A DNA stretch of 64,000 nucleotides, from the NCBI GenBank assembly GCA_963760145.1, contig CAVXBW010000019.1:68348-132347 (forward strand). Reading direction: 5' to 3'. The DNA comes from an uncultured Deinococcaceae bacterium. GTDB taxonomy: Bacteria; Deinococcota; Deinococci; Deinococcales; Deinococcaceae. Positions 13,580 through 64,000 of this stretch are shown here, piece by piece; positions within the stretch are counted from its first letter, which is position 1; every line of letters begins with the position of its first letter. A model generated the notes under the pieces. It was not told the DNA's origin and ran no database searches. It saw nothing but the letters and a program-made list of their open reading frames with translations. The translations under genes and the position numbers were made by a program.

Positions 13580-13929
13580 GGAAAACCTCCAACCGAGGAA
13601 TACATCAGGAATCAAGCAGGTGCTGAAGGAACAGTGCCGGCCATGCTCGCCGCTCACCAGAGCCCTCAGCATGGCGCAGTTCTCAGCGGGCGTTTGTGAC
13701 AGCAGCTCGGCTTCTGGGTGTGGGCATACAGTTCCGGCTCCGCTCATCGCCCGGGCAGCAGGGCAAGCAAAACCCAAGCTGAAACCTGCAGCCGGTAACC
13801 CTTCCCATCTGCGTAGCGATTTGGTTTTTTGCTGTCCGGCAAATGAAAAATTCTTTGACGGCCTTTTTTGTGACCATTTGCCGGAACCAGCCCAACAGCA
13901 TTCTGCGTCACTGGACACACCAAAAAAAG

Positions 13930-14070: not shown

Positions 14071-14568
14071 ATGAAAACGTCTTCCCGCTTCCTTCTGATG
14101 GCCCTGTTGACGGGCACAGCGCTGGCTCAAGGCGATTCGCCGTTGAAGCTCACGCTGTCGCAGGCACTGGTGCAGACCCTGACCGAGAACGGCAAAAGTG
14201 TCGAGAAGCTTTTGCCGGAACCCAGATCCGTACTGCCGGGCGGTGTGCTGGAGCAGGCCGTGAGCGCGACCAACACCCTGGACCGGGCCCTCGGCAACGT
14301 GATCGTGAACCTGCCGGTGCCGGCCGGCACCACCTACCTCAGCGCCGTCGCCGCCAATGGCGAAGTCAAGACCCTCTACAGCGCCGACAAGGGCAAGACC
14401 TTTGCCGCTGCGCCCCTGATGAAAATGGTCAGCGTCACCGAAAACGGCAAAGCCGTTCAGAAAGAAGTGGAGGTCAAACCTGCCGAGTACACCAACGTCC
14501 GCTGGGTCGTCGCTCAGCTTGCGGCCCAGAACACGCTCAAGCTCGGCTTCCGGGTCAAGGTGAACTGA
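14071..14568 (+). CDS. secreted single truncated DUF11-like domain protein (putative chaperone/cap)
   Basis: AAGGAG RBS; signal peptide ending ALA; PGGVLEQ...N...PVPAGTTY...VRW...LKLGFRVKVN*. Confidence 0.85.
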   Translation: MKTSSRFLLMALLTGTALAQGDSPLKLTLSQALVQTLTENGKSVEKLLPEPRSVLPGGVLEQAVSATNTLDRALGNVIVNLPVPAGTTYLSAVAANGEVKTLYSADKGKTFAAAPLMKMVSVTENGKAVQKEVEVKPAEYTNVRWVVAQLAAQNTLKLGFRVKVN

Positions 14569-14642
14569 ATTGAGCTGAGTTTTCCTTGCCCTGCCCTCCA
14601 CATTATCTTCCGCGCCGATTCCGTTTTCTGAAGGAGAACACC

Positions 14643-16890
14643 ATGAACATAAGCAAGAAAATCCTTATCCTGATGGTCGCTCTGGCGGCCGGTACCGCCG
14701 CCGCCGCTTCTGCGGGCACCACCGCCGGCACGAGTATCCAGAACATCGCCACCGTCAACTACATCGACCCCGCCACCGGCACGGCCGCCGCGCCGATCGA
14801 TTCCAACACCGTCACCACCACCGTGTTGCCGGTGGCCGGACTTTGACATCGTCTACACCGACGGCAGTCCGGACGGCAACACCGCCTCGACCCCCGCCAT
14901 GAGCGCCGATAAGACAAGGCGTGTTGCCCGGCGGCGAGGTCAGACGGCCATACACGGTGGTCAACAACGGCAACATCGACAACTACGTGATCGACCTGAA
15001 TCTACGCCGCCGGCATACCACCGCCTGCCGAGCATGGCCCTGCCGCGGCGCCGGACGTGCAGTACTTCCTGGCCAGCGACACCCCACCTTCTCGCGCCGA
15101 TCACCAGCGTCACCGTGCCGGCCAGCGGCAAGGTCAATTTCATTCAGCGCCTCACCGTCCCCAGTAACGCCGTCGCCAAAGCGCGCAGTACTCGGCCAGC
15201 CCCCACGGCAGTGTCCGCCGGCGGCAGCAACAACGGCAGTCCCTACGGGGCGGTGGATGAAGCCACCAACGTAACACCCGCCCACCCCGGCGGCCAACAA
15301 CGACCTTCAATTCACCCGCGCCACCATCTACAGTCCCCCGGTGCTGACCCCGCCGCTGACCGGAACAACACCCCCAATGCCGCCCAGCCCGACGGTGATC
15401 CCGCCGACCACCCGGCACCAATCCCGGCACGCCGAGCAATCCGGTGTCCCCGCCCACCACGCCGGGTGATCCCACCGACCCCAGCGGCCCCGGCTATTCC
15501 GATCCGGCCACGCCCAGCACCGCCATTCAGGTCTCCGGCAACATCCAGATCGCTTATCCGATTGCCAACCAAACCTCCGGTGACCTTCAACAACAACGTC
15601 CGCACGGCCGTCGCACTCCCCGACACCGTCAGCTGTTCCCCACCGACGCCAGCGGCGCACCCATCGGCACCAACAACGGCAACGGCACCTTCAACGTCCC
15701 GGCGATTGGACGCAACCCGGCTTACAGGTGCGCTTCACCAAGCTGACGCGTGCCGCTGCCGACGGCCACCACGCACTGACAGCAAGGTCTATCCGGTTGT
15801 CAGTTCCCGGCGGGCGGCGGACGCCGCGTACCACACCAAGATCGAACCCCAACCCGCAAACCATCGCCGATCCGCGTGGCGAATGTCGGTGACGGTAGGT
15901 GTCAGTCCAGCAACGATTCGGACATCACCGCCAACGGCACGACCACCGACACGGTCATGCCCGCCGCGGCCAGCTTCGGCGACGTCCCCGCCAGCGGCCC
16001 GGCCCCGAACCGCAGCTTGATCGGACCCGAACAACGCCGCGCAGAACGTGGTGCCCGGCGCGGCGGCCGCCAGCGGCGCACCCTCGACGACCACCGCGAC
16101 GGACAGCACGGCGGTGTTCCCGATGCTGGTCAACAACACCGGCAAGTACAACGACACCTATACCCTCAGCGGCACGGCACCGGTCAAGAATACCGAGCGG
16201 CACCACCACCACCGTCAACGTCCGGTATGTGGACGCCTCGGGCGCGGCCCTGCCGAGCGGCGCGGTCGCCAATACCTTCGTCACGCCCTTGGTGGCCGCG
16301 GGCAGCAGCCTGACCGTCTACGCCGTCGTGGATGTCCCCGCCACCGCCAAAGCCACCACCGGCAGCAACCCCGCCAGCAGCAACCCGAATCCGGTCTTGA
16401 CCCAGAACGCCACGGGCAATTACAGCACCATCGCCCTGACCGACCTCAACGACCAATTCAGATCGGCGCCATCGGCAGCATCACCGCCGTCAAAACCCAG
16501 AGTGCCAACGGTGCGCCGTACAGCGGCGGCGCCCAGTCCGCCAAGCCGGGCCAGACGCTGAACTACCGCATCATCGTCACCAACAAGTACAACGGCCCGG
16601 TGGCCGGCGTCCAGTTGAAAGAAAAACCCAGCAACACCGCCTTCACCTTCACCAACTTCGTCTCGGCCACCACGACCGCTTCGAGCGGATTTGTCGGCAA
16701 GCAGGAGGTGTACTACAGCACCGACAACGGCGCGACCTTCACCACCACCGCACCCGCTGCCGGAACCAACCTGAGCGTCGCCGGGTTGATCGTCGCCGTG
16801 GACACCAATGCGACCACCGGCATCGATGCCGGTGACCTGATGCCCGAAAACGCGACCATCACCCTCGACCTCAACACGACCGTCAAGTAA
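14643..16890 (+). CDS. secreted DUF11-family protein, putative major fibre subunit; many indels
   Basis: AAGGAG RBS; signal peptide, then [17 protein letters not shown]...SNTVTTTV; Thr/Asn-rich Ig-like repeats; C-terminal AVKT...[13 protein letters not shown]...[10 protein letters not shown]. Confidence 0.8.
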
Positions 16891-16898
16891 GCCGCCGT

Positions 16899-16930
16899 TC
16901 TGGTGCGTCCCAGTACTGGGACGCACCAGA
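16899..16930. terminator. perfect 32-bp palindromic stem-loop after the putative major subunit gene
   Basis: TCTGGTGCGTCCCAGT|ACTGGGACGCACCAGA. Confidence 0.65.
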
Positions 16931-17100: not shown

Positions 17101-19822
17101 GTGAATGCTCTTTCCGCATCTTTCCATGCTGTCGTTTCTGAGTTTCTGAGCCTGGCCCAGGCGGCGGCACTGCCGTCCGGAACCACGATCGACAACCAGG
17201 CGGCCGAAGCCCGAGCGTTCGCCGTGAGGCGCCCGTGATACGGTGTCGAACGTAGTGAGACCACGGTGGCGGCCGTCTGCGCCGTCAGCGTCACGCCGGA
17301 CGGCACGTCCAGCAGCCCGGTCAGCAGCGCAGCGTGTTGCCCGGCGAGGCCGCGGTGTTTTCTACCGGATGCTCAACACCGGCAACGTGGCCGCCACCAT
17401 GCCCCTGTCCGGTCCTGGTGTCTGCCGAGTCGGCCTTCACGCCGAAACTCGCGCTGTATCTCGACAGCAACGGCAATGGACAGCTGGAAGACGTGAGCGA
17501 AAAGCCGTCTCGCAGCGTGGCTTTGCCCCCAGACGCCTCAGCGAACTTGCTGCTGCTCGCTCAGAGCGAAGAGCAGCACCTCGGCGACGCGTTCGTGAAT
17601 GTCTCGGCCAGTTGCGCAGGGCAAGCACGCCGACGACGAACAACGTGGCGCTGCTGCGCCTGGGAGCGCCGCCCGCCCTGACACTCACGAAGACGTTCAG
17701 TCCCAGCATCGTCAAACCCGGCGACCAAACCACCGTGACCCTGACCGCTATCAATGCCGGTCAGGGCGCCTCGCGTGAAGTTGCGCTCTCGGATGATCTC
17801 AGTGCGCTCGCTGCCCAGGGCCTGAGCTTGGTGAGCGGTAGCGCAGTGCCAGCGGCGGCACGCTGGAGTACGGCCTCGGCGCGGCCTGGCAGTCCGGCGA
17901 GTCCGGCGCGGTGCAGGGCATCCGGGTCCGGCAGGATCACTCAAGCCCGGCGGCCGCTCAGCTTGACTTTCAGGATGCTGGCCGGTCCCCAGACCGAGAA
18001 CAAGACGTTCGTGAACACGGCGCCGTGGCCAGCACCGGCAAACAGAGCGTGCAGGCGCAGGCGTCGCTGATCTCGCAGTACTCGCCGCAGGTGGCGCTGG
18101 GCCCCATTGGTCATCCGGAGGCGGCCGGAGGGCAGCGACGCCGACGTGCAGCAAAAAACCTTCGCGCTGGTCGGCAAGGAACTCTGCTTTGATCAGACGC
18201 TCAAGAACACCGGCGACGTGCGAGACAGCTATGCCCTGAGGGCGAGTCACAAGGAAAACGCCGCAAGTCCGGTGTTCCAGACGCTGGAAGGTCAGCTGCT
18301 GACCATGCCACTGACGCTGGCCCGCGGCGCCAGCCGGACTTCAAGGTCTGCTTGACGCCGCAGGTCCCCGGGCCGCTGACGTGAGCTGATCGCCAGGGGC
18401 CAGCGCTGCACCCAGAACGCCACCAGGACCGCGTGACGGCGGTGCAGGCGGGCTTACCGGAGCCTCAAAATCGGTTTCGCCCAGCGGCATGGTGCCGGCC
18501 GGCACCATCCTGACCTACACCCTGACGGTCGCAATGTCTACAACGTTGCCCTGCACGATCTGGTCGTCCGCGACGCCCTCGGACAGCGCCCTGGAATTCG
18601 TCAGCGCCTCAGACGGCGGCGTACTGGAAGCGGGCGCGGTCGCGGTGTGGACTTTGCCGACCTGGCGCCCGGCGAGAGCCGCACCCTCACCATCAGGGCC
18701 ACGGTGGGCCGGAGACTGCCGACGGCACCAACCTCACCAACACCTTCAACTACCAGTGGCGAGTTGCCGGAGCCGCTGCCGAGCAACGAAACCTCGAACC
18801 TGATGTGGACGGCCCAGCTGGTGATCGAAAAGAGCGGTCGAACAAAGCCGAACGTGACCTACGGTGACCGGCTGACCTACACCCTGACGCTGCGAAATCT
18901 CTCGGCGCAAGGCCCCGCTGGAGGGCGCCTGGTCACCGACACCCGGCCGCGGGCCTCGACTACGTGCCGGGCAGCGCGGCCCTGGCCGGTCAGCCGCTGG
19001 CCGATCCGCAGCAAATGGCCGGCCACCTGATCTGGTCCATTGGGACCTTGCCGCCCGGCGGCAATCTGGTCATGACCTACCAGATGCGGGTGAATGCCCA
19101 GGCGGGCGGAGAACTGCTCAACACCGTCGTGGTCTCGGGCAGGGCGGTGGCCGGAAATTCACGGCGGCGATCACCAGCAACGAGGCCAGCGCAAAGTCAA
19201 GCTCAAACTGCTGATCTTCGCGCCGCTGAGCGACATCGTCGGACGGTCTACATCGACCCAACCGCAACGGCCGCTCCAGCCGCAGACCGATCAGCCCATG
19301 GAGCGCGCGCGTATCCTGCTGGCCGGCGGCCGTGAAGTCCTGACCGACGCGGCGGGGCGCTACCACTTCAAAGACGTGCCGCAGGGTGTGCAGGCGCTGC
19401 GGCTCGATCCCGGAGCGTGCCTCGGTGGCCCTCTCAGGTGCCGATGGACGGCGGACTGAGCGGGCACCCGGACGGTCAATGTCGCGGGGCTGAGCGGCCG
19501 TGGATTTCCCGCTCTCGCCGCTGGTCGGCGACTATTGACGCGCCTTGCGGGACGTCGGTTGACGCCGGGCCGCTTGAAGCTGGAGAAGACTCTGGCGTTG
19601 ACGGTGAGCGGTACACTGGTCACGCTGCAGTCTGAGCAGTCTGCAGTGCCCTGCCGGACTTCGAGCTTGACGACCCGCTGCCCGCGGCGCGGTCCTGAAA
19701 GAAGGAAGCAATACGCTCGGCACTAGCTTGGCGTCAGGAGACACCACCTTGACATACCTTTCGACTGGTCAGGCGAGCGCCGCGCTGCGGTAACCGAACC
19801 CACCGTGCGCTGGAGCGAGTGA
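17101..19822 (+). CDS. secreted multi-DUF11 protein with SdrD B-like domain (putative base/anchor subunit); many indels
   Basis: [21 protein letters not shown]...VSNVVxTTV N-terminus; LTLTKTF...[21 protein letters not shown] and LVIEKS...[12 protein letters not shown] repeats; [12 protein letters not shown]. Confidence 0.75.
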
Positions 19823-22800
19823 TGAACCGAATGTCATGTTTTTCTCACCGCGCTCTTGCTGCTCGGCAGCTGCCCAGGCCCAGGAACTGGGATTGCCGAG
19901 TCGCGGGCCGCCGTCGATGTTGAAAATCGGCCGGCGTGCTGCCCACCAACGCCCCGGAGATCACGCGGGAGAGCACCATCAATCTGCCGTTCGAAGCGCC
20001 GACGAAGCGCGGGAACTCGTCATCGCGCAGACCTGCCACTTGGCGCGACTACCGGCTCGGAAGCGCCCGGCTTGGCGGCAGGGCCATTGCCGACCCGGTG
20101 CTGGGCAGCAGGGCCGGCTGTACTGGGTGGTGCCTGCCCAACAAACCGGAAAGCTGAGCTACCGGTGACGTACAGCGGCAACTCGGTGATCTGGCGGCCG
20201 AGGCGGCCTTGCCCACCAGGGACGCGCAGGCCGCAGCGAACGTGCTGCACGGCACACTTTGATCCGGCGGATCCCTGGCCGCCGCTCACAACATCGTGAG
20301 CCAGGCCGCCAGCCGAAAACGCGGGCACATCAAATGGCCACTTGACGGCACGGTGTACCGCATTCGTGACCGCATCACGGTGACGGTGGAAGGGCCGCTG
20401 GACCGCCGCTGAGCCCCACCATCAACGGCCAGGGCTGCTCGACACCGCCAAAATCGGCAGCCGCACCGACGGACCCGGCGCGCAACATGCAGCGCCTGGA
20501 ATTTATCGGCACGCCGCTGAAACCTGGACCCAACATCATCCAGCTGGGGAGCGACGATCACCGTGTCGCTGCGCCTCGGTGACCAAGCGGGTCGACGTGA
20601 CGCCGCTGCGAAGTGGTGGCGGACGGCAACAGTCTGATCCGCTGCGAGCTGCGGGCCTACGACGCCTTCGGCATGCTGTCTTCGGTGTCCGAGCGTGACC
20701 GTGAGAAGCAATCTGGAACCCAAAACCCCGACGCTGATCCGTCGAAGGCGGGATACCAGGTTCAGATGAAGACGGCGAAGGCGTACTCGTCGCTGCAACC
20801 GCAATCGTCACCGACGACGCTGAACCGTCGCTGCTGGTGAACGGCAAGAGCAGATCAGCCGCTTTGAGATCATGCCGGCCGGCGCCGGGTCGCGGTTGGC
20901 ATGGTCAGCGCCACCCTGGGCCTGCCGGACTTTGCGGTGCAGGGCCGAGAACTTGAGCTACCAGGCACGCGCTTCGATTGAAACGCCGCTGCCGGCGGCA
21001 AGCTCTACCTGACCGCCGACAAGGACGGCCTGCCGAGTTCGGAGAGCGTGTACAGCCCGGCAGGCCAATTACGGCGACAGCAGCAGCGAGAGCATGCCGC
21101 TGCAAGGCGTCGACCCGGTGGCGTTCACGTATGATCACCCGGCATTCCGGGCCGCCTACAAACAGGGCCGCTTGCCCGGTGACGTGTTGCCCCTCGGCGA
21201 GAACTTCACCGCCCTGCGGGTCGGTAGCAAGTCAAGTGGCCCGAACCTCTCGGGCTACGTCGCGGCGGTGCCGGCAAGCCAAATCAGGCGCAGCTGACTC
21301 CCGAAGGACGCCTGCTTCACCTTCAACAGGGCATGGCGCCGGACAGCGAAAGCCTGACGGTCGTGGTCCTCGAGCGAGTCGGGCCGGCAAGGAACTGTCG
21401 CGGACCCGCTGACCCGGCTGGCGGATTACACCCTCGGACATGACAGCGGCGTGATGACGCTTCAATCAAGCCCGCTCGACCGCTCGACGCCGAGCTCAAC
21501 GATGTCCGGGTGGACGTGAGTTACCGGCTGAACAACCCGCTGGGCCAGCGCGAACTCAGTTACGGCGCGCAGATGTGGCAGCAGCAGCAGCGCACGGCCG
21601 GGCCGGCGTTGGTTCACTGTGACGGACGTGACCACCTACGGCGTGAGGGCAACGTACGCCGACGACGCAACACCCGCGCCAGTGCGTTGGCCGCTTATCC
21701 GAGGGGCTGCAGCTCAGCGGCAACTTCGAGCGCCGTTTCTCGGCCAGCAGCGTGCTCAGCGCCCAGGGGCGCTACCAATCCAAGAATTACGCGGGCCTGT
21801 CGCCGCTGGGCACGGGCCTGAACGTGGCGGCCAATTACAAAACGCGTTGTTCGGTGAGCGTCTGGTGGCCAGTATTGACGGCGAATACCACAACACCCGG
21901 CGGCCACGACCGAAGTTGCAGGGCGGCAGCCTGACCACCCGCGCCGATTACAATTTCAAGCCGTTCAGCGTCGGCGGCGGCCTCAAGTACGCTTTCGGCG
22001 ACACGTACGGTCTGGGCGCCGTCGCCAGCGTGGGCTACCACCGAGCGCCGCTGGATATTGACGTCGTACACACCCAGCCGCTGAGCGGCAACCTCGCCGC
22101 CGTGAGCGACGTGAGCGCCAAAGTCAGGGTCGCCAGCAACGTGACGCTGGGCATCAAAGACACCTACACCTGGGGGAGGCAGTCACTGGCGGCGCTGACC
22201 ACCGACACCAAGCTCGGGAACGTCAATTACGCGGTGAGCTACGAATTGCCCCACGCGGACGGGGCCGGCAACCGGGCCCGCTTCGGGGCCGACACCAGCA
22301 TTCCGCTGTCTAAAACATTCAACCTGGGTCTGCGCGGCGCAGTCGTGCGGGCTTTTGCGCCGGCAGCAATGACTCAGCGCCGGAGCAGACCTGCGTTACC
22401 AGGGCCGCAACGTTGCCGGCAGCTTCGGGAGCGACGTCGACGGAAAGGGGGTCAATTCGGCACGGTGCTGCGCGGCGGTCTGAGCGGCAGCTTGACGCCG
22501 GAGCTGAGCCTGAGCTCAGAGAGCGCTGCCGAGTTGGGCCGCAACCAGGGCCTGCGGGCCGCCCTGGGTACGCTTACCGTGGCGGGGACTTGAGCAGCCT
22601 CGGGTACCTGCGCTACGCGGCCGGCAGCCTTGCTGGCGCCGCTCCGGAAATCACGGCGGGCCTGAATGCGGAGTACCACCGGCCCAGTACGCCCTGCGGG
22701 CCGGACTCGACGCCCGCGAATTGCTGAGTGATTCGCAGAGCCTGACCTTGCAGCCGTCGCTCGGGGTCACCGCGTACATCGGTGAGCGCTTCGGCATTGG

Positions 22801-23011
22801 GCGGGTGGGGCCGGGCCATCTCGCAGCCCGGCAGCGGTACGCGGTGTACGGCTACGGCGTCGAAGGTTCGGTGCGGGCCCTGCCCGGCACCTGGTTGACC
22901 GCCGGGTATAACTTCGCCGGGTTTGACGGCATCGGGAACCAATATACCAAACCCGGATCGTATGTCCGGCTTGATGTGACGCTGGACGAAACGGTAGGGG
23001 GGGAGAAGTGA
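19822..23011 (+). CDS. large secreted outer-membrane beta-barrel protein (putative usher-like pore); many indels
   Basis: TGATG coupling to the upstream gene; signal-peptide-like start; C-terminal half of alternating amphipathic strands ([33 protein letters not shown]) ending [10 protein letters not shown]. Confidence 0.7.
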
Positions 23012-26000
23012 AGTTGAAATCCGATTCTTGGTGGTCGTGCTCTCGGTTACTGGCAGTCTTGGTGGCGCTGCTGGGGTTTGGCGGCTTGGTACGAGCAGAG
23101 AGCTTTAATCTTGAGTTTGTCAACGGTGTGGCAGTCCCTGGCGGTGGTACGTGTACCTTAACCGTCAACAGCAGATGCCGCTTCAATAACGTGGTGGTGG
23201 GGGCCGGTACAGGAAGTAGCAATACTTTCCAGCGTGACATAATTGTAACCCTGACAAAACTTGTCAATGCAACACTTGATCCTGCAGCTGTTTTTGATAA
23301 CCCCACACCAAGTTTATCTACAACGCCACCTTCAGCAGCAACGGCGACTCAACTTTTCGCTCCGACGGTTTTGCCTACACAAACAACACCTAATATCGAC
23401 GGATGGGCAGAGTTTACCTTCGATTTCATAACGCCTGGCGGCGCTGTCCCTGCAGTTGGTGCCGGCACAGCGATACTCCCTGGTTCATTCTGGGTGACCA
23501 GTTATGATACTGACGGCTCTGGAACGTTACGTGAATTTGTAGAGTTTCTGGGTATTCCTGCAACCTCCACGGGCTTGTCCGCTTCCAGTACGCTCAGCAG
23601 TAACACCGCAATTGATGGAGGCGTGCAGTATCAGTCAGGCACAGTAGGGCAAGCTGGTATTACCACCCTAGATACCTATAAGGCCTCCGCACAGTATTCG
23701 AACGTGTCGAGCTTCAAGCTCGTTTATGGTGCCCATACAGGAACTAGTGGCAGTACGGCCGGCGGCCGCTTGACCGCGTTTGATTTCTTCAAGCCTGACG
23801 CTATCTTTTTGCGCCCTGATGTAAACGGTTACAAATCCGTGAAATTCACCACCGATGCAGATAGCAGTGGTTCGCTCACACCGGGCGATACCCTGACCTA
23901 CACGGTGACGTACGTCAACACTGGCAATGTGGCTGTCAGCAATTTTCAGATCGTTGACACCTTGCCTACAGGCGTAACCACAACGGCGGGTGCGCAAACG
24001 GTTCGGGTGAATGGAGCCGTCACGCCTGGTTCGAAGAATACTGCTTATACGGGCAAAGCCGCCAATATCAATCTTCTATCGACTGGTCAAACTTTAGCTA
24101 TTGATGGAACAATAAGCGTTGATATTCCGGTCACTGTTAATTCGATTTCGATAGATAACACTGTTTTAAGCAATCAGACCAATAGTAGTGGAGGTTTTAT
24201 TGACGCTATCAATACAAGTATGACGATGACAAGTGTCAGTTCCGATAATGTGGACACCACTACAGCATTTTCTCCTAATGTTTCAGGTGCCAGTGGCTTT
24301 GGGAGTGTACCGAGCGGCAGCATTGCTCAGACCCAAACAGCAGCGGTGGACCCCACCACAGTGACGGTGCGTCTGCTTCCTTCGCCGGGTATCACCAAAG
24401 CGTTTACTCCCACCAGTATTGCGCTAAACACCATCAGCACCCTGACCTTTACCCTGACCAACAGTAGCACCGGCACTCTGACCAACCTGAACTTCACCGA
24501 CGCCCTCAGCGGCATGAGCGTGAGCAGCGCAACCATCGGCGGCACCTGTGCGGCCACGAGCAGCCCGGCCTTGGCCGTGGACGCCACGGCCCTGAACCTG
24601 ACGGTGCCGAGTCTGGCGGCGAGCGGCAGCTGCACCGTGACGGTTTCGGTCAAAGGAACCGTCATCGGCGTGAATCCCAACACCGCCAGCGGCGTCACCA
24701 GCACTCAGACGCCCACAGCCGGCAGCGCCTCCAACACCGCCAACCTAACGGTGACGCCGCTGGCGCCAGCGATCAGCAAGAGCTTTAATCCTTCAAGCGT
24801 GCTTCAGGGCGGCACCACCCAGCTCACCATCAACGTGACCAACCCCAACGGCGTGGCGGCGACAGCCCTGACCCTAACGGACGATATCGCCGCGACCACT
24901 GGCCTGACCGGGCTAAGTATCAGTAGCGTGGTCAGCGACAACTGTAAATCGGGCGGCACCGTGACGACAACCAGCGGCAAGTACACCCTGACCGGCGGTA
25001 CGTTGCCTGCGGCGGGGTGTGCGGTGGTCCTCAACCTGATGCTGCCGAGTTCGGGCACGACCGGCAGCGTCACCAACACCATTCAGGGCAGTAGCGTCAC
25101 CGGCACCATCGGCGGCCAGAGCCTTCCGACGCCGACCGACGCCTCTGCCGCGCTGAACGTTCAACCTGTCGCCGACCTCGCCGTCACCAAGACCAACGGC
25201 GTGAGCAGCGTCGCTGCCGGCAGCAACACCACCTACACCGTCCGCGTGACCAACAACGGCCCCAGCAGCGTGACCGGCGCGGTGCTGAAAGACCCGCTGG
25301 CAACCGGCCTGACCCAGACGGGAGCGGCCTGCACGTCTGCCAGCGGCAACACCTGCGCGGCTGCTCCGACCACCACTGCGCTGCAAAGTGCGGGCGTGAC
25401 GTTGCCGGCCCTGGCGAGCGGCGGGTTCTACGAGCTGACCGTAACGGCCAGCGTAACGGCGAGCAGCGGCAACGTGACCAACACCGCCACCATCGCGGTG
25501 CCCAGCGGCGTCACCGATCCGGTCAGTACCAACAACACCGCCAGCGACACCGACAGCGTGACGGGCCTGAGCTACTCGATTTCCGGCAGCGTCTTTGTGG
25601 ACACCAACTACGGCGGCGGTGCGGGCCGTCCCTACAACGCGGCGCAGGGCATGACTCTGCGTCCCGGCGTGCGGGTGGAGCTGTACAGCTTGGCCGGCAC
25701 GTTCATCAGCGCAGTGCTGACCGATGCCAGCGGCGCCTACAGCTTTGCCAACCAAAGCGCCGGCTCCTATCAGGTTCGGGCAGTCAACGCTTTCGTAACG
25801 AGCAGCCGCACCGGAGGCTGCACGCCCAGCACGGTTGTGGCGACGCCGCCCACCTGCACACAACTGCCGGTGCAGACTTATATTTACGGCGCGGCCGCGC
25901 AGGTCGGCGGAGCCAATCCTGCCGGGGCGGATCCGGCGCTGAGCAGCACCACCCTGCCCGCCGCGGCGCAGTCGGTTGCCAGCGTGACACTGAGCAGCGC

Positions 26001-28059
26001 CAACGTCACGGGTGTGGACTTCGGCTTCAACTTCAGCACCGTCGTCAATGTGGCGAATGCGGGGCAGGGGAGCCTACGGCAATTTGTCATCAACACCAAC
26101 GCGCTGGACAATTCGGGGCTGGCTCAAAGTGGCAACCGGGCTTCCAAAGTCACGGGCGCCGCTGAAGCGCTGCCCACGGCCCGCGACAGCAGCATTTTCA
26201 TGATTCCTACGGGAGCCTTGACCGGCGGTGTAGCGATGATTTCTTTGAGCAGCGCCTTACCAGCCATCAGCCGCAGCAATGTCAGCATTGACGGCAGCAC
26301 CCAGACCATTAACATCGGCAACACCAATGCCGGCACGCTCGGAACGGGCGGAACAGTCGGTTACCTCGTGACAGCCAGCCTCGATACTGTGCAAAAGCCC
26401 GAAGTCCAGCTGGTGGGCACGTCTGCCCTGGCGGTCGGCTTGGACCTCACGGCCAGCAATGCCCAGGTGCGCGGGTTGTCCATTTACGGCTTCGGCAGCG
26501 GCCCCAACAACGACACGTACGCCAACATCCGCATCGGTGCGGCGGCGAGCGGCACCCTGGTCGAGGCCAACATCATCGGCTCGCCGGCCACCAGCTTCAC
26601 TTGCGGCGCGGCGACCACCACCGCGCTGAGCAATGCCGACAACATCCGTTCTGTAGGCGGCACCACCGGCACTGTTCAGAACAACTTGATCGGCTGCGCT
26701 TCCGGAAAGGGTGTTGGCGTTCAGAGCGTTTCGGTGGGCTGGAGCATTCTGGACAACGAGATTCGCGGCAACGGAATCGGCTACGCCGGGCTGGACGGCA
26801 TTGATATGGAAGATCCCGGCAGCAAATCCCACACCGTGCGCGGCAATCTGATTACCGAGAACGGCGGCGTGGGGGTAGACGGGTATTCCGGCGGCGGCAG
26901 TAATTTGATCGAGCGCAATACCATCACCGGAAACGGCATTGCCCAGAGCTCGTCGTCGGCAGGTGAAACGCCCGGCTTGCGGCTCTACAGCGCCAACAAC
27001 ACGGTCAAGAACAATGTCATCGCTCTGAACTACGGCGCGGGCGTGATGGTCACCGGCGGCGTCAGCGGAAACCTCATTTCGCAGAACAGCATCTATGACA
27101 ACGGCACGGTGACATTGCAAAACGGCAAAGCCGCCAGCGGCCAGATCGGCATTGATCTGCTGGGTTCCAGCGATTCCGTGCTGGTGGGAACCGCGCCGTA
27201 CGTCACTAAAAACGACGTCGGTGACCTCGACAGCGGCGGCAACGACCTGCTCAACTTTCCTGTCTTTAATGCTGCCCTGATCGTAGGCAGCAACTTGCAG
27301 CTGACCGGATATGCCCGGCCCGGCAGCACCATCGAAGTGTTCATCGCGGCGGCAGACGCCAGCGGTTTCGGAGAAGGCAAAACGTACCTCACCACCCTGA
27401 CCGAGGGCAGCGCCGCCGATACCGATACCGGTAGCGGAAGCTACAACGACCCGGTGCTCGGAAGCGACACCACCAACCTGTTCAAGTTCACTGTTCCGCT
27501 GCCCAGCGGCGTGGTCGCCGGAACGAAGTTGACGGCCACCGCCACCTGCCTGACGGGCGCCTGCACCGGCACCACGGTAACGGCCAATTCAACCAGCGAG
27601 TTCAGCTACAACGTTTCTGTGGTGTTGGCGCAGACGCCCAGCGTTACCCTGACCAAACTGGGCCGCAACGTCACCAAGAACACGGCCTTTATCGCCGGCA
27701 GCGGCAGCGTGGGCGTGTTGCCCGGTGAGACCATCGAGTACTGCATCGCCTACCAAAATGCCGGGGGCGTGGCGCCGAACTTCAAGATCACGGATAACGT
27801 TCCGGCCGGGCTGGTAGCGTTGCCAGATGCTTACGCGGTGGGAAAAGGCGTCCGCTTTGCGCCGAGCACCACCATCGCCGCAGGCGCGACGGCTGCGCCC
27901 GCCGGCAGCGACTTGACCAACGCCAGCGACACGGATCAGGGCAGCCTGACCTTGACTGGCGGCGGCTTTGGTAACGGCGTCATGTCTCTGAATCTGGGAG
28001 CGGCTGGTCTGAGCGCCAGTGGCAGCGGCACCGTCTGCTTCCGCACCAGGTTGCCCTAG
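23008..28059 (+). CDS. 1683-aa secreted adhesin: N-terminal lectin-like domain, four DUF11-like repeats, SdrD B-like domain, parallel beta-helix, truncated C-terminal DUF11
   Basis: Intact ORF overlapping the upstream stop (GTGA); ADLAVTKT...TNNGPS...NNTASD; ISGSVFVD...TDASGAYSF; GSLRQFVINTNA and N-I-x-x-N beta-helix repeats. Confidence 0.9.
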   Translation: MKLKSDSWWSCSRLLAVLVALLGFGGLVRAESFNLEFVNGVAVPGGGTCTLTVNSRCRFNNVVVGAGTGSSNTFQRDIIVTLTKLVNATLDPAAVFDNPTPSLSTTPPSAATATQLFAPTVLPTQTTPNIDGWAEFTFDFITPGGAVPAVGAGTAILPGSFWVTSYDTDGSGTLREFVEFLGIPATSTGLSASSTLSSNTAIDGGVQYQSGTVGQAGITTLDTYKASAQYSNVSSFKLVYGAHTGTSGSTAGGRLTAFDFFKPDAIFLRPDVNGYKSVKFTTDADSSGSLTPGDTLTYTVTYVNTGNVAVSNFQIVDTLPTGVTTTAGAQTVRVNGAVTPGSKNTAYTGKAANINLLSTGQTLAIDGTISVDIPVTVNSISIDNTVLSNQTNSSGGFIDAINTSMTMTSVSSDNVDTTTAFSPNVSGASGFGSVPSGSIAQTQTAAVDPTTVTVRLLPSPGITKAFTPTSIALNTISTLTFTLTNSSTGTLTNLNFTDALSGMSVSSATIGGTCAATSSPALAVDATALNLTVPSLAASGSCTVTVSVKGTVIGVNPNTASGVTSTQTPTAGSASNTANLTVTPLAPAISKSFNPSSVLQGGTTQLTINVTNPNGVAATALTLTDDIAATTGLTGLSISSVVSDNCKSGGTVTTTSGKYTLTGGTLPAAGCAVVLNLMLPSSGTTGSVTNTIQGSSVTGTIGGQSLPTPTDASAALNVQPVADLAVTKTNGVSSVAAGSNTTYTVRVTNNGPSSVTGAVLKDPLATGLTQTGAACTSASGNTCAAAPTTTALQSAGVTLPALASGGFYELTVTASVTASSGNVTNTATIAVPSGVTDPVSTNNTASDTDSVTGLSYSISGSVFVDTNYGGGAGRPYNAAQGMTLRPGVRVELYSLAGTFISAVLTDASGAYSFANQSAGSYQVRAVNAFVTSSRTGGCTPSTVVATPPTCTQLPVQTYIYGAAAQVGGANPAGADPALSSTTLPAAAQSVASVTLSSANVTGVDFGFNFSTVVNVANAGQGSLRQFVINTNALDNSGLAQSGNRASKVTGAAEALPTARDSSIFMIPTGALTGGVAMISLSSALPAISRSNVSIDGSTQTINIGNTNAGTLGTGGTVGYLVTASLDTVQKPEVQLVGTSALAVGLDLTASNAQVRGLSIYGFGSGPNNDTYANIRIGAAASGTLVEANIIGSPATSFTCGAATTTALSNADNIRSVGGTTGTVQNNLIGCASGKGVGVQSVSVGWSILDNEIRGNGIGYAGLDGIDMEDPGSKSHTVRGNLITENGGVGVDGYSGGGSNLIERNTITGNGIAQSSSSAGETPGLRLYSANNTVKNNVIALNYGAGVMVTGGVSGNLISQNSIYDNGTVTLQNGKAASGQIGIDLLGSSDSVLVGTAPYVTKNDVGDLDSGGNDLLNFPVFNAALIVGSNLQLTGYARPGSTIEVFIAAADASGFGEGKTYLTTLTEGSAADTDTGSGSYNDPVLGSDTTNLFKFTVPLPSGVVAGTKLTATATCLTGACTGTTVTANSTSEFSYNVSVVLAQTPSVTLTKLGRNVTKNTAFIAGSGSVGVLPGETIEYCIAYQNAGGVAPNFKITDNVPAGLVALPDAYAVGKGVRFAPSTTIAAGATAAPAGSDLTNASDTDQGSLTLTGGGFGNGVMSLNLGAAGLSASGSGTVCFRTRLP

Positions 28060-55983: not shown

Positions 55984-56001
55984 CGCCCCGGAGGAGCTGA
56001 G

Positions 56002-56980
56002 ATGAACGCCACCTTACTCAGGCCGCTCGGCCCGCTGCCCACCACGGTGCGCGGCGCCCAGCGCACGCTGGACGAACTGTGGGCCCAGACCGATATCGAG
56101 ACCCGCGCTTACACCGGCAACATCATCGCGCTGACCTCGCCGCAGCATCAGGGCCGAATTCAAGAAGCGCTCGCCGGGCTCTGGAAGGCCGCTACGCCGG
56201 ACGCCAGATCATCGCGGTGATGCAGCCGGCAGCTTCGGGGCGCATGAGCATCGACGCCGAACTGGTGCCGCAGCAGGGCCTGTACATCGAGCGCCTGACC
56301 CTGCTGGCCAACCCCGGCAGCTTCGCGGGGCCATCTTGCCGCTGCTGCGCCCGGCCACCGTCAACCACGTCTGGTGGGCCTCGGACGACCCGCCCGGCGG
56401 CCCGCTGCTGCGCGAGCTGACCGACATCGCCGACCAGGTGATCGCCGACAGCCTGCGCCTGGATATTCCCCCGGCCCGCCACTACGCGCTGGCGGATCTG
56501 GGCTGGTCGCGCTCGGCCGCCTGGCGCGAGGCGCTGGCGCAGGTCTTTGACAGCAAAGACGCCGCCGCCGTGCTGGGCAGGGTCGAGCAGCTCAAGATCT
56601 GGTCGGGCGGCAAGAATGACCGCGCCGCGCGGCTGTATGCCGCCTGGGTCGCCAGCACCCTGGGCTGGAAGGATTTCGGCGCCGTGACTTTGTCAAGGGA
56701 GATTGCCAGCGCCAGCACGGCGATTTGTGCGGCGTGGAGCTCGCGGGCCGGGCGTCAGCTTTGCGCTGAAGGCCAGCGGCAGGAAATGGTGCGAGTCGCC
56801 GCGCAAATTTGGCCGGGTCAACCGCAAGACCTCGATGATGGTGCCGAGCATGACCCTGGCCGAGGGCCTGGGCCGGGTGATGGCCCGCCCTGAGCGCGGC
56901 AGCGTGTTTGAAGCGGCCTGGACACTGGCCCGCGCCAGCCTCGAACAGGCGCCCGCCGGAAAAGGCCGAGCGCTACATGA
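56002..56980 (+). CDS. opcA: G6PDH assembly protein OpcA; several indels
   Basis: Position after zwf; VWW, IADS and [16 protein letters not shown] motifs. Confidence 0.8.
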
Positions 56981-57651
56981 ACGTCCAGGTCTTCGCCACG
57001 CCGCAGGCCACGGCCGACGCCGCCGCCGAGGCGTTCGCTCAGGCGGCCCGGCAAGCGGTGGCCGGGCGCGGAGCTTTTCACGTGGCGCTCTCGGGCGGCA
57101 GCACCCCCAAGCTGATGTACGCCGCGCTGCGCGGGCTGAGCGTGCCGTGGGAGAGCGTTCAGATCTATTTCAGTGACGAGCGCACCGTGGCTCCCGACGA
57201 CGAGCAGAGCAACTATCACACGGCCAAGGTGGGTCTGCTGGACTACGTGCCGGTTGCGCCGCAGCACAAATTCACCGCCTGGAGGGCGAACTCGACCCGG
57301 CGCAGGCTGCCAGCGAGTACGCCGCGCTGCTGCCGCCGCAGCTCGATCTGGTGCTGCTGGGCATGGGCGACGACGGCCACACCGCCTCGCTCTTTCCCGG
57401 CACGGCGGGGTTGCAGCTCGGCGGGCGGGTCATCGCCAACGAGGTGCCGCAGCAGCACACCTGGCGCATGAGCTTTACCTTTGACGAGATCAACGCCGCC
57501 AGAGCACGCTGGCTGCTGGTCACCGGAAGCGCCAAAGCGCCGGTGCTGGCGCAGGTGGCACGCGGCGAGGGCGGCTATCCCGCCGCGCGGGTGCACTCGC
57601 CGGTCTGGTACTGGACACGGCGGCGGCGGCGCAGTTGCCGGACGAAACTGA
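56977..57651 (+). CDS. pgl: 6-phosphogluconolactonase; indels
   Basis: [28 protein letters not shown]. Confidence 0.92.
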
Positions 57652-57725
57652 GCCGCCTCCCCGCACGGCTGCTGACACGTTCGCCTGACATCCTTGACCG
57701 GCCCGCCAAACCGCTAGCTTAGGTC

Positions 57726-58362
57726 ATGGTTTTGTCACGCTTCATGCCCCGGAACGAGAAATTCGGCGAATTGTTCGCCGCGTCGGCCCGCAACGCTCAG
57801 CAAACCGCCGAGGCGCTGATCGTGCTGCTCGGCGCGTCCGGCGACCTGGCCCGCACGCCAGCGGCCTGCGCGACCTCGAGCACGCCGGCGACACGCTGGC
57901 CGCGCAGATCACCCAGATGCTGGCCGATTCGTTCATCGTGCCGTTTGACCGCGAGGACATCATCGGACTCAACGCCGAACTCGACGATTTGACCGACTTC
58001 ATCGAGGAAGCCGGGCGCAAACTGTGGCTCTACCGGGTCGCGCCCACGCCCGCCATGCGCGAACTCGCCGAGGTGGTCTCCAAGCAGTGCGGAGTGCTCG
58101 CGCGCGGAATGCCGCTGATCGAAGATAAAAAGCGAAGTTGCGGAGCTCGAGCGCTCTGGCCCGCGAAGTCCGCGCCCTGGAAGACGAGGGTGACCGCATC
58201 AGCGACGCGGCGCAGGCCAGCTTGTACGACGGCGTGAACGAGGTCAGGCAGATGGTGCAGGCGATGCGAACCGGCGAGATCCTCTCGCTCCTGGAAGACG
58301 CCTCCGATCAGGCGCAGCGGGTGGCCAAGACCGTCGAAAATATTCTGCTGAAAAACGCCTGA
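57726..58362 (+). CDS. DUF47/PhoU-like phosphate transport regulator; indels
   Basis: LEHAGD, FIVPFDREDI...LDD, LEDEGD; upstream of pit. Confidence 0.88.
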
Positions 58363-58366
58363 ACTG

Positions 58367-59361
<995 letters not shown>

Positions 59362-59649
59362 AAGCCGAGCGTTACGGCGTCTTTCATCTGGACATTGAGA
59401 AATTTTACTGGGAGTAGAACTGTAATATGTGATTTAAAAAGCGTCGTAGAGAGCGCAGCTTTCTCGTTCGTTGAGTGCAAATGGTCAGTCAAGTTGGTGG
59501 AGAGTCTTCATTATGAGGGGCGAGTCGCATTGAACTCGGCCCCCGGCCTTTATACTGAGGGCCGATAGGATGTTGGATCCCCGGCGCAGCCTCCTGACGT
59601 TCCTGGAGCGATCGACGGCAAACACTGCTGCCCGCGTGAAAAGGGAGGG

Positions 59650-61015
59650 ATGCACTTGTTATCACTCGGTTTTCAGCGGCACCGTCGTTTTCGACCCAGC
59701 AGGCCGCTCTCCGCTTCGCGCCAGCTCGCTGAGCTTGCTGTTCGGCCCGGCGGCGCAGCGCGCTTTCATGTGCGCTACTGGGACGGCACTCAGGAAGGCC
59801 CGCCGCAGCCCACACGCCGCCACCCTGGTGCTCAATCGCCCGCCGCGCTGCGGCGAATGCTGCTGCCGCCCTCGGATCTGGCGCTCGGCGAGGCGTACAT
59901 CTTCGGCGACTTCGATGTCGAGGGCAACCTCGAATCATTGCTGGCCCAGGCGGTACGCTGGGTGACCGATTGCTCCGTCCGCTGGTGGCGGCGCGGGTCG
60001 CTGGCGCTGCTGCTGGCGCTGCCCGGTGCGCCCCGCCCCGCGCCGCGCCCGGCCTTCGACGACGCCAGCAAGGCCCACACCAAAGAGCGCGACGCCCACG
60101 CCATTCGGTACCACTACGACATCGGCAACGACTTTTACAAGCTGTGGCTCGATGAGCGGATGGTGTATTCCTGCGCTTACTTCCAGACCGGCCAGGAAAC
60201 CCTGGAAGAAGCCCAGATCGCCAAGCTCGACCGCATCTGCCGCAAACTGCGCCTGCAAGCCGGGCGAGCGGATGCTCGACATCGGCTGCGGCTGGGGCGG
60301 GCTGGCCATCTACGCCGCCCAGCACTACGGCGTGCGGTCACCGGCATCACCCTCAGCCCCTCGCAGGCCGAAGTGGCCCGGGCGCGGGCCGAGGCGGCGG
60401 GCGTGGGCGACCAGGTGACCATCGAGATTCGCGATTACCGCGATCTGCCGCACGCGCGTGCCGTACGACAAGATCGCCAGCGTGGGCATGTTGGAGCACG
60501 TGGGCCGCGCCAAGATGCCGCAGTATTTCGCGCAGATCTACCGTCTGCTCAAGCCCGGCGGCCTGCTGCTCAACCACGGCATCGTCAAGGAAATCACGCC
60601 CGCCTTCATGCACTGGGGCTTCGGGCTGCTGGAGCGCTACCTCAACAGCCACTCGTTTATTGCAGAACTACGTCTTTCCCGACGGTGAATTGCGGCGCCT
60701 GAGCGAGGTCAACCTGCGGGCCGAGCAAGCGGGTTTCGAGATCCGCGACGCCGAGAACATGCGCGAACATTACGCCCTGACCCTGCGCGAGTGGGTGCGG
60801 CGGCTGGAAGACCGCCACGACGAAGCGTCTGGAGCGCGGCTTGGCCGACGAAGTGACCTACCGCATCTGGCGGCTGTACATGTCCGGCAGCGCCCAGTCG
60901 TTCGCGGCCGGCGCGCATCGGCATGGTGCAGACGTTGCTGGCCAAGCCTTGCCCGAGCGGCGAGGCCGGCTTGCCCTGAGCCGCGCCGACATCGAGGCCG
61001 CGCCGCCGCTCTAAA
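59650..61015 (+). CDS. cfa: cyclopropane-fatty-acyl-phospholipid synthase family methyltransferase; indels
   Basis: LGEAYI, HYDIGNDFY, MVYSCAYF, LDIGCGWG, SVGMLEHVG, YVFPDGEL, HYALTL. Confidence 0.85.
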
Positions 61016-61022
61016 CCCAGCC

Positions 61023-61378
61023 TCACTCCAGCATCTTGGCCCAGCTCTCCTTGTCCTCGCCCACCGCCAGAACCTTGCCGCCGCGCACCAGCGGCAGCCT
61101 CAGGGCGGCGGGAAAGTCGGCCAGTTTGGCGCAGAAAGCCGTCCTCCGAGAGCCGCAGGTACGGCAGGCCCGAATCCTCGTAGGCTTTGCTGGCTTTATC
61201 GAGCACGCCGTCGGCGCCGAACTTCTGCTGAAAGCGGGCCAGTTCGCTCTTGCTGATCGGCTTGATGCGCCAGGTCAACGAAATGCACCTTGACGCGCCG
61301 CTCCTTGAAAAAGCGCTCGGCGGCGCGGGTGGCCGCCGATTTCTTGAGGCCGAACATCTGCACGGTGACTTCAGGCAT
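61023..61378 (-). CDS. ArsC/Spx/MgsR family protein; indels
   Basis: QMFGLKKSAATRAAERFFKE...LRLPLVR. Confidence 0.75.
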
Positions 61379-61435
61379 GTTCTGAGTTTACGAGCGTCCG
61401 TTACAAGCGGTTCGGGGCCGTCTTTGTGCAGAGCG

Positions 61436-62168
61436 CTACTTCAAGGTGTCGCCGAAGTAGTTCAGCATGGCCCGGCGGGCGTCCTTGCTGGCGTAGGTAT
61501 CGGCGATCTTGCTGTCTTTGAGCAAAAAGCCGTGCGGCTCGCCCTGGTAGACCACCAGCTTGAAGTTCTTGCCCGCCGCGTCGAGCTTCTGGGCGTAGCT
61601 GTAGATGCTGGCCACCGGGCTGGGCTGGTCTTTGCTGCCGTGAATGATCAGCATGGGCCGCTCGAGCTGCCCGATGAACTCGGCCGGGGCCTTGGGCTGG
61701 GTGGCCGTGCCGCCCGAATCGGGAAAGCCGTACCAGGCCACGCCGGACTTGAACTGCGGCATCTGCGGCAGCAGCAGCATGGTGTAGCGCCCGCCCGCGC
61801 AGAAGCCGGTCAGGCCAACCCGGTTCATATCCACGTCGCTGCGGCCCGCCATCACCTTGAGACCGTCCTCGATCAGCGCCTTGACGATGGCGTCACTCGG
61901 CTGCTTCTCGAAGGTCTGCCAGCCGAGCGCCAGCGTCACGTACCCGGCCGCCGCCAGTCTCGTCGGTGAGGTCTTTGTAGCCCTGCTCCAGGCCGTTGAA
62001 CGAGTGAATCAGGATCACGGCGGGCTTTTTGGCTGCGCCTTCCGGCGCGGAGAGGTAACTCTGGTACGCTTTGCCGCCGCTCATCACATCGATGTTCTGG
62101 CCGGCCGCTGCGGCCAGCGAAAAAGCGGTGAGGGCGAACACGGCGGCAGGTAAGGTCAGTTTCAGCAT
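61436..62168 (-). CDS. secreted dienelactone hydrolase family protein; indel near 61960
   Basis: Signal peptide; GFCAGG nucleophile, HGSKD, HGF. Confidence 0.88.
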
Positions 62169-62288
62169 GGTGGGGCCTCCACCCTCACCGTAGATGCGAC
62201 AGCGGGCGAACACGATGCTGTCAGCGCCAACGCCGACGGTGACCGGCTCACAAAAAGGCAGAGCGCTCAGATGAAATGGTGTCACGCC

Positions 62289-63510
62289 TTACGCGCCGTA
62301 CTTTTGCAATTTCAGCGCGTTGGCCATCAGGAGCGGCATGATGTCGGTGCCTTTCCGCAGGCCCAGGCTGCCTCTCAGCGCTTCGTCCTCGGTGTAGCGG
62401 GTCGCCGGGTCCCTGCGCCCGTACTTGCTGCGGATCAGCAGCGGCACCGGATGCCAGGAGTGGGTCGCCAGCTTGCTGGGGGTGCTGTGGTCGCCCACGA
62501 TACAGATCACGTCGGGCTCCAGCGCCAGCAAATCGGGCAGCAGGGCGTCGAACAGTTCGATCTTCTTGACCTTGGCCTTAAAGTCGCCGTCCTCGCCGGT
62601 CGAGTCGGTCTTCTTGATATGGAAGTAGAAGAAATCGTACTCGCCCCAGCTTTGCTTGAGCGCCTCGACCTTGCCGCTCCAGGGCGTCTTCCTCGCCCTG
62701 CAACGTCCAGCACGTCCATGCCCACCAGCGAGGCCAGGCCCTTGTACATCGGATAAGACGCGATGCAAGCGGCCTTGAGCTGGTAGATGTCGTCGAAGCT
62801 GGGAAAGTGCGGTACGTCGGAGTAGCCCCGAAACAGCACGCCGTTGACCTGCGGCTCGTCTTTGAGAATCGCCTCGGCCTGCTGCACGAAGCTGTTGACC
62901 AGCGCGGCGGTTTTCTGGCTGGCCTCGTCGTGGGCCTCGGCGCTCATCGGCGGCACGCCGGTGTCCTGCGGGTCCACGTCGCTGAGGTTGGCGCCCAGCG
63001 GCGTGCCCTGGGCGCGGAACACCACCACGAAGCGGTGCTCGCTCTCGGTGTAGATTTCCACCGGAACGCCGTCGATCTCTGAAATGTCCGGCCTTGAGCT
63101 TGGCACGATCTCGGCGTTTTTCTCGTCGCTGGGGCGCCCGGCGCGGCGGTCTTTGATGATCCGGTCGCCTTCCAGAGTGGCGAAGTTGCCGCGCACCGCC
63201 ACGTCTCCGGCACTCAGCTTGACCCCGATGCCCACCGCGCTGAGCGCTCCGCGCCCGACCACGAATCTGAGGGGATCGTAGCCGAACAGACTCAGGTGGC
63301 CGGGGCCGGAACCGGGGGTGATGCCTGCGCCGACGAGTTCCACCAATCCCAGCTGCGACTCGCGGCCAGCGCGTCCAGGTTGGGCGTTTTGGCCGTCGCC
63401 AGTTCGGTGTCGCCGCCGAGGTCCATCGGCAGGCCGCCCACGCCGTCGAGGACGACCATCAGAATCTTCTCGTCGGTTTTCTTGGCCAGTTCACGGATGG
63501 TGTCAATCAT
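62289..63510 (-). CDS. apgM: 2,3-bisphosphoglycerate-independent phosphoglycerate mutase (archaeal ApgM type); indels
   Basis: [51 protein letters not shown]. Confidence 0.92.
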
Positions 63511-63609
63511 GCCCAGCAGTGTACGCCGGGGCTGTCAGGCCGGGTCCGGGGCTGTCTGGGCGGCCCCTCCCGGAACAGACAGCGCCCAAGCCCCTCGGCC
63601 TCCCCCAGC

Positions 63610-63839
63610 TCAGTGCAGCACCGTCATCCGCAGCAGGCCGTAGACGGCCAGCACCGCGCCCAGCACCTGAATCCAGCGCTCGCCCTGGGCGTACCAGAAG
63701 GCCAGCGCGCCCAGCAGCGCGAACATCGACGCCGATCAGAACACTGGCGAGCAGGATCGCCGTAGCGGTTGGCCGCCGCGTAAAGGCCGAAGCCGACCGC
63801 CAGTCCCAACATGCCCAGCACCGGGCGCAGAAGGTTCAT
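63610..63839 (-). CDS. small membrane protein; indel
   Basis: Three hydrophobic segments across two frames. Confidence 0.55.
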
Positions 63840-64000
63840 GCGCGCCCAGTTCTAGCGGATTCCATCGGTGTTCGGCGCGTCGATCCTTGGGTGCGCCGTA
63901 GCGCAGTGCCAGCGCGTCGCTCAGGCGCCACAACCCCAGATCGAGGTCGGGCCAGCGCTCAAGGGCCAGCGCCGCGCCGCCGCCGAGTTCTTCCAGCATG
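63836..64000 (-). CDS. 3' end of a hypothetical protein (partial)
   Basis: Open frame to the window edge; its stop overlaps the next ATG. Confidence 0.4.

Follow-up and report, generated by a model that had tools for sequence, protein, structure and literature searches.

The window analysed here, a stretch of 64,000 nucleotides from an uncultured Deinococcaceae bacterium, contains five successive forward-strand genes whose order recurs across the loci of relatives. The following features are given in window coordinates.

14071..14568, + strand: gene 1, a small secreted, acceptor-like DUF11 fragment without the catalytic acid (ORF from 14026; the ATG at 14071 was picked by eye)
14643..16890, + strand: gene 2, the predicted major (shaft) subunit, about 750 residues (about 757 when joined), with at least 15 frameshifts in the assembly
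14643..14708, + strand: gene 2 signal peptide, judged by eye
14712..14825, + strand: gene 2 donor hairpin, corresponding to the two final strands of a DUF11/CLIPPER domain; its Asn is codon 14742-14744
14826..16461, + strand: three Ig-like domains of gene 2, with a Pro-rich insert in the second; read across frameshifts, limits approximate
16462..16887, + strand: gene 2 acceptor, CnaA/CLIPPER-like but lacking the two final strands; Lys 16492-16494, Glu 16621-16623
16899..16930, + strand: perfect 16-bp inverted repeat just past the gene 2 stop, with a stem conserved in homologues
17101..19822, + strand: gene 3, with an N-terminal donor hairpin (Asn codon 17194) and internal complete DUF11 domains; candidate base subunit; frameshifted
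19820..23011, + strand: gene 4, large and frameshifted, with a beta-barrel predicted at its C-terminus; candidate anchor or pore of the outer membrane
23008..28059, + strand: gene 5, an intact adhesin-like protein of 1683 residues and candidate tip; C-terminal acceptor with Lys 27655 and Asp 27793; no donor

The sequence-only reading had described gene 2 as a DUF11 domain divided between the two ends of one protein, and its anchor points hold. The N-terminal motif lies in an uninterrupted frame (14643-14840) with the Asn of the IxNxA motif at codon 14742, and so does the C-terminal domain (16462-16890), with its Lys at 16492 and a Glu at 16621 as the acidic residue. The Ig-like spacer placed between them is also there: an intact homologue has three such domains, at residues about 37-204, 205-406 and 407-573. 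The Asn sits about 580 residues upstream. What that reading passed over in silence is that no single open frame joins the N- and C-terminal parts. Frameshift-aware alignment with homologue P0019 gave 15 shifts and 411 identities over 732 aligned residues; a single gene spans 14643-16890, interrupted by no fewer than 15 frameshifts. Gene 1 is flanked by the two arms of a 19-base inverted repeat (89% complementary), at 13758-13776 and 14576-14594.

The fold of the C-terminal domain indicates where the domain is divided. Its AlphaFold model (pLDDT 93) matches many CnaA pilin and adhesin domains, with the CLIPPER structure 9IFR among the top rows, at moderate Z-scores (6-7.8) that stay below 8 throughout and are equalled by unrelated folds such as adaptin mu subunits (Z 7.8). 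For three templates, with 9IFR outside the count, the bond residue numbers are given in the accessible text of PMC12617251 (Table 1). The alignment covers 1324-1462 of 3opu and ends 7 residues ahead of the bond Asn1469, covers 182-289 of 4hss and ends 10 residues ahead of Asn299, and covers 187-307 of 2x9z and ends 11 residues ahead of Asn318 (Z 6.0-6.4, rmsd 3.0-3.4, 100-113 aligned residues). Counted without gaps from where each alignment starts, the window's Lys coincides with the template bond Lys in all three. According to these models the three bond residues are not found in one continuous domain, as the chain stops 7-11 residues short of the Asn position. Pattern search in gene 3 homologues recovered 14 complete DUF11 domains, in which the Asn lies 10-14 residues past the same strand, approximately the length of the mature gene 2 N-terminus up to its Asn; long gene 2 homologues moreover have, in their interior, a complete domain with donor-like final strands. 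Taken together, an acceptor that ends before the Asn, the DUF11 spacing and these donor-like strands argue that the domain was cut at a defined point and that the missing piece is the N-terminal hairpin. The split proposed from the sequence is supported by a CnaA-like modelled fold that ends before the Asn and by the conservation described below.

Family profiles give a mixed picture. With TIGR01451 (DUF11-type repeat) the C-terminal domain scores 26.2 bits, above the cut-off of 24, but Pfam DUF11 (PF01345) has no match on the window's C-terminal ORF at E 0.1 and a sub-threshold match in some homologues. Searches for a solved relative of gene 2 returned none by sequence and none of the same architecture by fold, the model of a full-length homologue giving generic Ig matches only. 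TTHA1873 (7WRK) came up as a fold match to the acceptor and was set aside, gene 1 having no sequence link to TTHA1873.

Conservation of the Lys, the acid and the Asn among homologues, named as a check by the sequence-only reading, is complete in the main alignment. Relatives supplied 20 loci, 19 with an intact gene 2 and one (L032) frameshifted. The main alignment (A2) has 85 rows, made up of 15 of the 19 intact locus proteins and 70 of 75 database matches; left out were four long forms from the loci and, from the database, four matches nearly identical to proteins of the loci plus a short record. Its median pairwise identity is 0.39, with 7 pairs above 0.9, and every named database homologue is from Deinococcus. 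All 85 rows carry the Lys, an Asp or Glu (60 Asp, 25 Glu) and the Asn. The bond Lys is the sole invariant one among 27 Lys columns, the bond Asn is one of five invariant among 57 Asn columns and the catalytic acid one of four among 48 acid columns. When the alignment is headed by the window's own domain (A4), all 80 rows keep the acid and 77 keep the Lys, the other three having a gap (two rows) or a Leu (one row). A wide search yielded 140 new representatives, 89 of which have an N-terminal donor, with the Asn kept in 88 and missing in P0197. An acceptor, recognised by profile or motif, ends 53 of these 89, and 52 of the 53 have the Lys, identified by pattern in 47 and by eye in 5. The 36 without such an acceptor include, among the matches listed, fragments, gene 3 types and barrel-like fusions. 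Covariation between donor and acceptor was uninformative: by mutual information over about 57 effective sequences, 9 pairs exceeded z 3 against the acceptor and 11-14 against other domains. On the evidence of the aligned sequences, the split-domain feature of gene 2 is real and strongly conserved.

The neighbouring genes carry the same two halves in a polar arrangement. Gene 5 ends in a K..D acceptor in all 13 copies that could be counted (the window and 12 loci, excluding 8 loci cut off or frameshifted there) and has no donor, the best donor score being 1.7 bits vs 9-58 for true donors. Gene 3 starts with an Asn-bearing donor in all 16 full-length copies; two frameshifted copies and two short forms are outside this count. 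In gene 1 the final strand is the one on which the acceptors also end; the acid at the catalytic position is absent in 15 of 15 copies, and a Lys near the first-strand position is absent in 13 and one residue off in two. Judged from these sequences, gene 1 could be a dead acceptor able to hold donors without bonding, a candidate non-covalent chaperone or cap. Evidence for the gene 4 barrel includes only sub-threshold Pfam barrel matches, in one homologue. Among the matches listed, the large proteins P0087 and P0100 have an N-terminal donor and no terminal acceptor, and the end of P0087 resembles gene 4 by eye. An acceptor in gene 5 with no donor in its own chain has to be completed by another chain, and some junctions must therefore be in trans. 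The sequence-only reading had placed the bond residues in trans within gene 2 itself; complementation in trans is supported by the neighbouring genes, which that reading did not use, with an acceptor-only adhesin and a donor on gene 3, and is the probable mode for the subunit itself.

Several further observations concern these partners. Gene 5 has a lower G+C content (0.60 vs 0.66 in genes 2-4) and a lower codon bias, contains a beta-helix and, in its interior, four complete domains bearing K, D and N motifs, and has an N-terminal region that differs greatly between loci, as if adhesin heads were swapped. In gene 3 (window about 19570-19822; L031:5046-8042), the final domain has the Lys and an Asp, followed by a conserved T(D/E)P..W strand at the place of the Asn strand; either a Lys-Asp bond or a further junction with gene 4 is possible there. 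Short forms of gene 4 (L031:7985-11434, L042:7893-11144, L048:5917-9177) start with a DUF11-like domain without the first-strand Lys, and long forms (about 1600-1870 residues) start with other domains.

Sequences and models together reveal the split, the three conserved residues and the polar donor/acceptor set of the operon, and from them we infer an isopeptide bond, a polymer and a Tag/Catcher use of the gene 2 pieces. On balance we favour, with moderate confidence, gene 2 as a covalent head-to-tail shaft subunit of a predicted surface fibre, built on a split CnaA/CLIPPER domain with a self-made isopeptide bond. After export and signal-peptide cleavage, the acceptor-only adhesin would receive the donor of a shaft subunit (donor and acceptor, many copies), the last shaft acceptor would receive the donor of the gene 3 product, and the outer-membrane barrel protein would follow at the base. 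In place of its two missing strands, the gene 2 acceptor would take up the N-terminal hairpin of the following subunit, whose conserved Asn would then likely form an isopeptide bond with the acceptor's conserved Lys, aided by the conserved Asp/Glu. The gene 1 product has no catalytic acid and for that reason would bind free donor hairpins only non-covalently, and the hairpin past gene 2 would keep the shaft subunit in excess.

The number of gene 2 copies per fibre is where the closest competing explanation parts from ours. One copy of each protein suffices for the polar termini, and gene 2 could be an adaptor that links a single adhesin covalently, in trans, to a single gene 3 product, so that a short stalk forms instead of a polymer. 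The DNA downstream of gene 2 speaks against this. The window's stem has a folding z of -2.66, and the 110 bases 3' of gene 2 reach z <= -2 in 15 of 16 loci, compared with none of 16 downstream of gene 3 and 3 of 15 downstream of gene 4, a contrast that is inflated by the use of coding DNA as controls. Across 17 sequences, seven of the nine consensus pairs of the hairpin show two-sided changes. The terminator scan did not call the hairpin; 16899-16930 is a likely transcript-ratio element. In codon usage, the share of C-ending Asn, Tyr, Phe and Ile codons is highest in gene 2 in 13 of 16 loci. Both the conserved hairpin and the strongest codon bias fit a multi-copy shaft made in excess, as is the case for major pilin genes, and neither proves a polymer; no sequence feature was seen that would bar the gene 2 donor from the gene 2 acceptor. 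We therefore regard the single-copy bridge as unlikely.

A fibre of the same head-to-tail build might also be held together by donor strands alone, as in TasA and chaperone-usher pili, with no Lys-Asn bond at least in the copies that have Glu. Glu replaces Asp at the catalytic-acid position in the window's gene 2 and in 25 of the 85 homologues, and Asp is listed there for all 14 CnaA-like families in the accessible text of PMC12617251 (Table 1). Some DUF11 domains carry no bond, which counts against the covalent reading, and oligomers of the BsaA variant N35A are SDS-stable until heated (bioRxiv 10.1101/2024.11.04.621531, accessible part). One homologue, P0197, lacks the donor Asn, the acceptor Lys and the Lys and Asn of its internal domain and retains the architecture, which also makes it a natural non-covalent control; it was not counted as a co-loss of Asn and Lys, having just 1 Lys in 891 residues. 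Nevertheless, from what is understood of CnaA chemistry, a core-facing Lys that is the only invariant one of 27 is hard to explain without a bond, and a purely non-covalent fibre appears distinctly unlikely to us.

The gene 2 protein might instead close on itself, as a circular permutant forming a four-domain ring with an internal bond and hence a stable monomer. The sequence-only reading had judged such cis closure unlikely from the distance between the two halves, an argument weaker than that from the operon: a discontinuous CnaA domain can close in cis across about 400 residues, as in the GBS104 family (3TXA, 137-211 plus 587-717; accessible text of PMC12617251, including Table 1). The single-chain model of an intact homologue (pLDDT 85, pTM 0.73), with three Ig-like domains between donor and acceptor, has a partly ordered donor region (pLDDT 65-78, some strand character), and in that model the donor may be closed in cis. 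However, a closed gene 2 protein would leave the acceptor of the adhesin and the donor of gene 3 without partners, and the operon is stronger evidence for trans pairing than the single-chain model is against it. The interdomain linkers of gene 2 are short and mostly of constant length; the Pro-rich segment of 24-113 residues belongs to domain 2 as an insertion and does not form a tether. Closure would be required of every homologue, over lengths of 664-1014 residues and differing domain numbers, and the ends of such a domain sit at opposite poles, as they do in Ig-like folds generally. Cis closure is consequently quite improbable.

The frameshifts that interrupt gene 2 are probably local assembly errors. 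Three other genes of the stretch, dnaK, ftsH and lpdA, are fragmented as well, a search of the unmasked part of the genome (81% complete) turned up no other HSP70, and the frame switches are patchy along the window. They cluster at 1-22000 and 56000-64000, where they break dnaK, ftsH and lpdA, and the part from 22 to 36 kb is clean. A decayed pseudogene cluster in the window's strain, with a system functional in relatives only, would account for the many frameshifts in genes 2-4 and for the 11 of 14 test genes elsewhere that have no frame switch, a count that tells against assembly error, but given the broken dnaK, ftsH and lpdA, the missing second HSP70 and the patchiness we consider it very improbable. 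Public contigs do not include gene 2, and the one DNA run matches it in scraps only.

A covalent split-domain shaft would have a wide range. A profile of the donor plus the first domain matched 96 of 120 near-complete Deinococcota genomes (a count of the module, not of verified operons), and many Deinococcus genomes (G019, G041, G044, G108 and others) have 5-9 donor-module matches each, which suggests several paralogous operons. Beyond the phylum there is one named donor-and-acceptor protein, from Nitrospirae, and look-alikes from the Atlas in Cyanobacteriota, Acidobacteriota and Pseudomonadota serve as leads only. The DUF11 protein DR_0685 has been detected in the D. radiodurans proteome (PMC8779699, accessible part). 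More tentatively, at a little short of an even chance, we propose a distinct class of pilus in outer-membrane bacteria: a covalent fibre that locks itself without sortase, is made of CLIPPER domains split in nature and comes with a barrel of its own, an acceptor-only tip adhesin and a catalytically dead acceptor as chaperone, found in most Deinococcota and with look-alikes in other phyla. If this is true, a common Deinococcota operon makes a covalently locked surface fibre without a sortase in cells with an outer membrane, and operons annotated as DUF11 'conserved repeat' proteins gain a testable job. Cutting a domain in two would have turned an intramolecular stabilising bond into a polymerising one. 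Natural peptide-protein ligation pairs would then be on offer, the donor-acceptor pairs forming a large natural library of CnaA-type Tag/Catchers, including ones from thermophiles.

Engineered pairs illustrate the principle. In SpyTag, DogTag and the like a short peptide completes a domain and an isopeptide bond forms, DogTag being an Asn-bearing hairpin; these pairs are engineered splits of CnaB-type domains, whereas gene 2 would be a natural split of a CnaA-type domain. The closest domain is CLIPPER (PF01345, PDB 9IFR), described in the accessible text of PMC12617251 as an intramolecular domain and sharing with the DUF11 domains discussed here a CnaA-like sandwich, a first-strand Lys, a catalytic acid and a late Asn. 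Against the gene 2 acceptor, 9IFR gives Z 6.5 and rmsd 2.4 over 92 aligned residues with 24% identity. However, the CLIPPER bond lies within one chain (PMC12617251, same text), while the gene 2 domain is cut before the Asn strand, with its parts at opposite ends of the protein and, in the operon, also on different proteins. No paper on a split DUF11/CLIPPER pilus was found in the literature searched, which reached few subscription papers; the accessible part of a 2026 review of bacterial surfaces leaves DUF11 and CLIPPER unmentioned, and TLP-1 and Pam pili use donor strands, with isopeptide or DUF11 not found in the accessible parts of their descriptions.

Assembly routes known from other surface fibres match the locus in part. 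Sortase-assembled pili differ in that gene 2 homologues have no C-terminal sorting signal and end directly on the last strand of the acceptor. The archaeal thread Saci_0406 assembles head to tail by donor strands and has a putative cap gene; the isopeptide link proposed for it connects Asn57 with the N-terminal amine of Asp24 at a distance of two subunits, and there is no Lys/acid/Asn triad (PMC9715654, accessible part). Chaperone-usher pili resemble the predicted layout of the operon in having a tip adhesin, a shaft with N-terminal donors, an outer-membrane barrel and a small periplasmic helper, but their links are non-covalent and their chaperone donates a strand, whereas the gene 1 helper is acceptor-like (PMC13721041, accessible part). 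Profile searches gave no usher or PapD family match on gene 4 (three homologues) or on gene 1 homologues, and gene 1, a single DUF11-like domain of about 145 mature residues, does not fit a two-domain PapD-like chaperone.

The proposed chemistry in trans has a precedent in BsaA of Clostridium perfringens, a TasA-family protein in which donor-strand exchange is locked by a Lys-Asn bond, as shown by mutation, and heat-stable oligomers are abolished by mutating N35, K74 or E56 (bioRxiv 10.1101/2024.11.04.621531, accessible part). As in gene 2, the Asn is on the N-terminal donor and the Lys and acid are on the acceptor. BsaA fibres, according to the same text, are built in a Gram-positive from a TasA-family subunit with one donor strand and SipW processing, whereas in gene 2 a two-strand hairpin would complete the terminal CnaA/CLIPPER domain of a four-domain subunit, and the operon includes a predicted barrel. 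No TasA-family profile or fold is among the matches listed for the operon proteins, and the gene map, as distinct from a family search, has no SipW-type peptidase among the five mapped genes. The gene 2 system would be like BsaA in mechanism and is like a chaperone-usher operon in layout, and probably belongs to neither.
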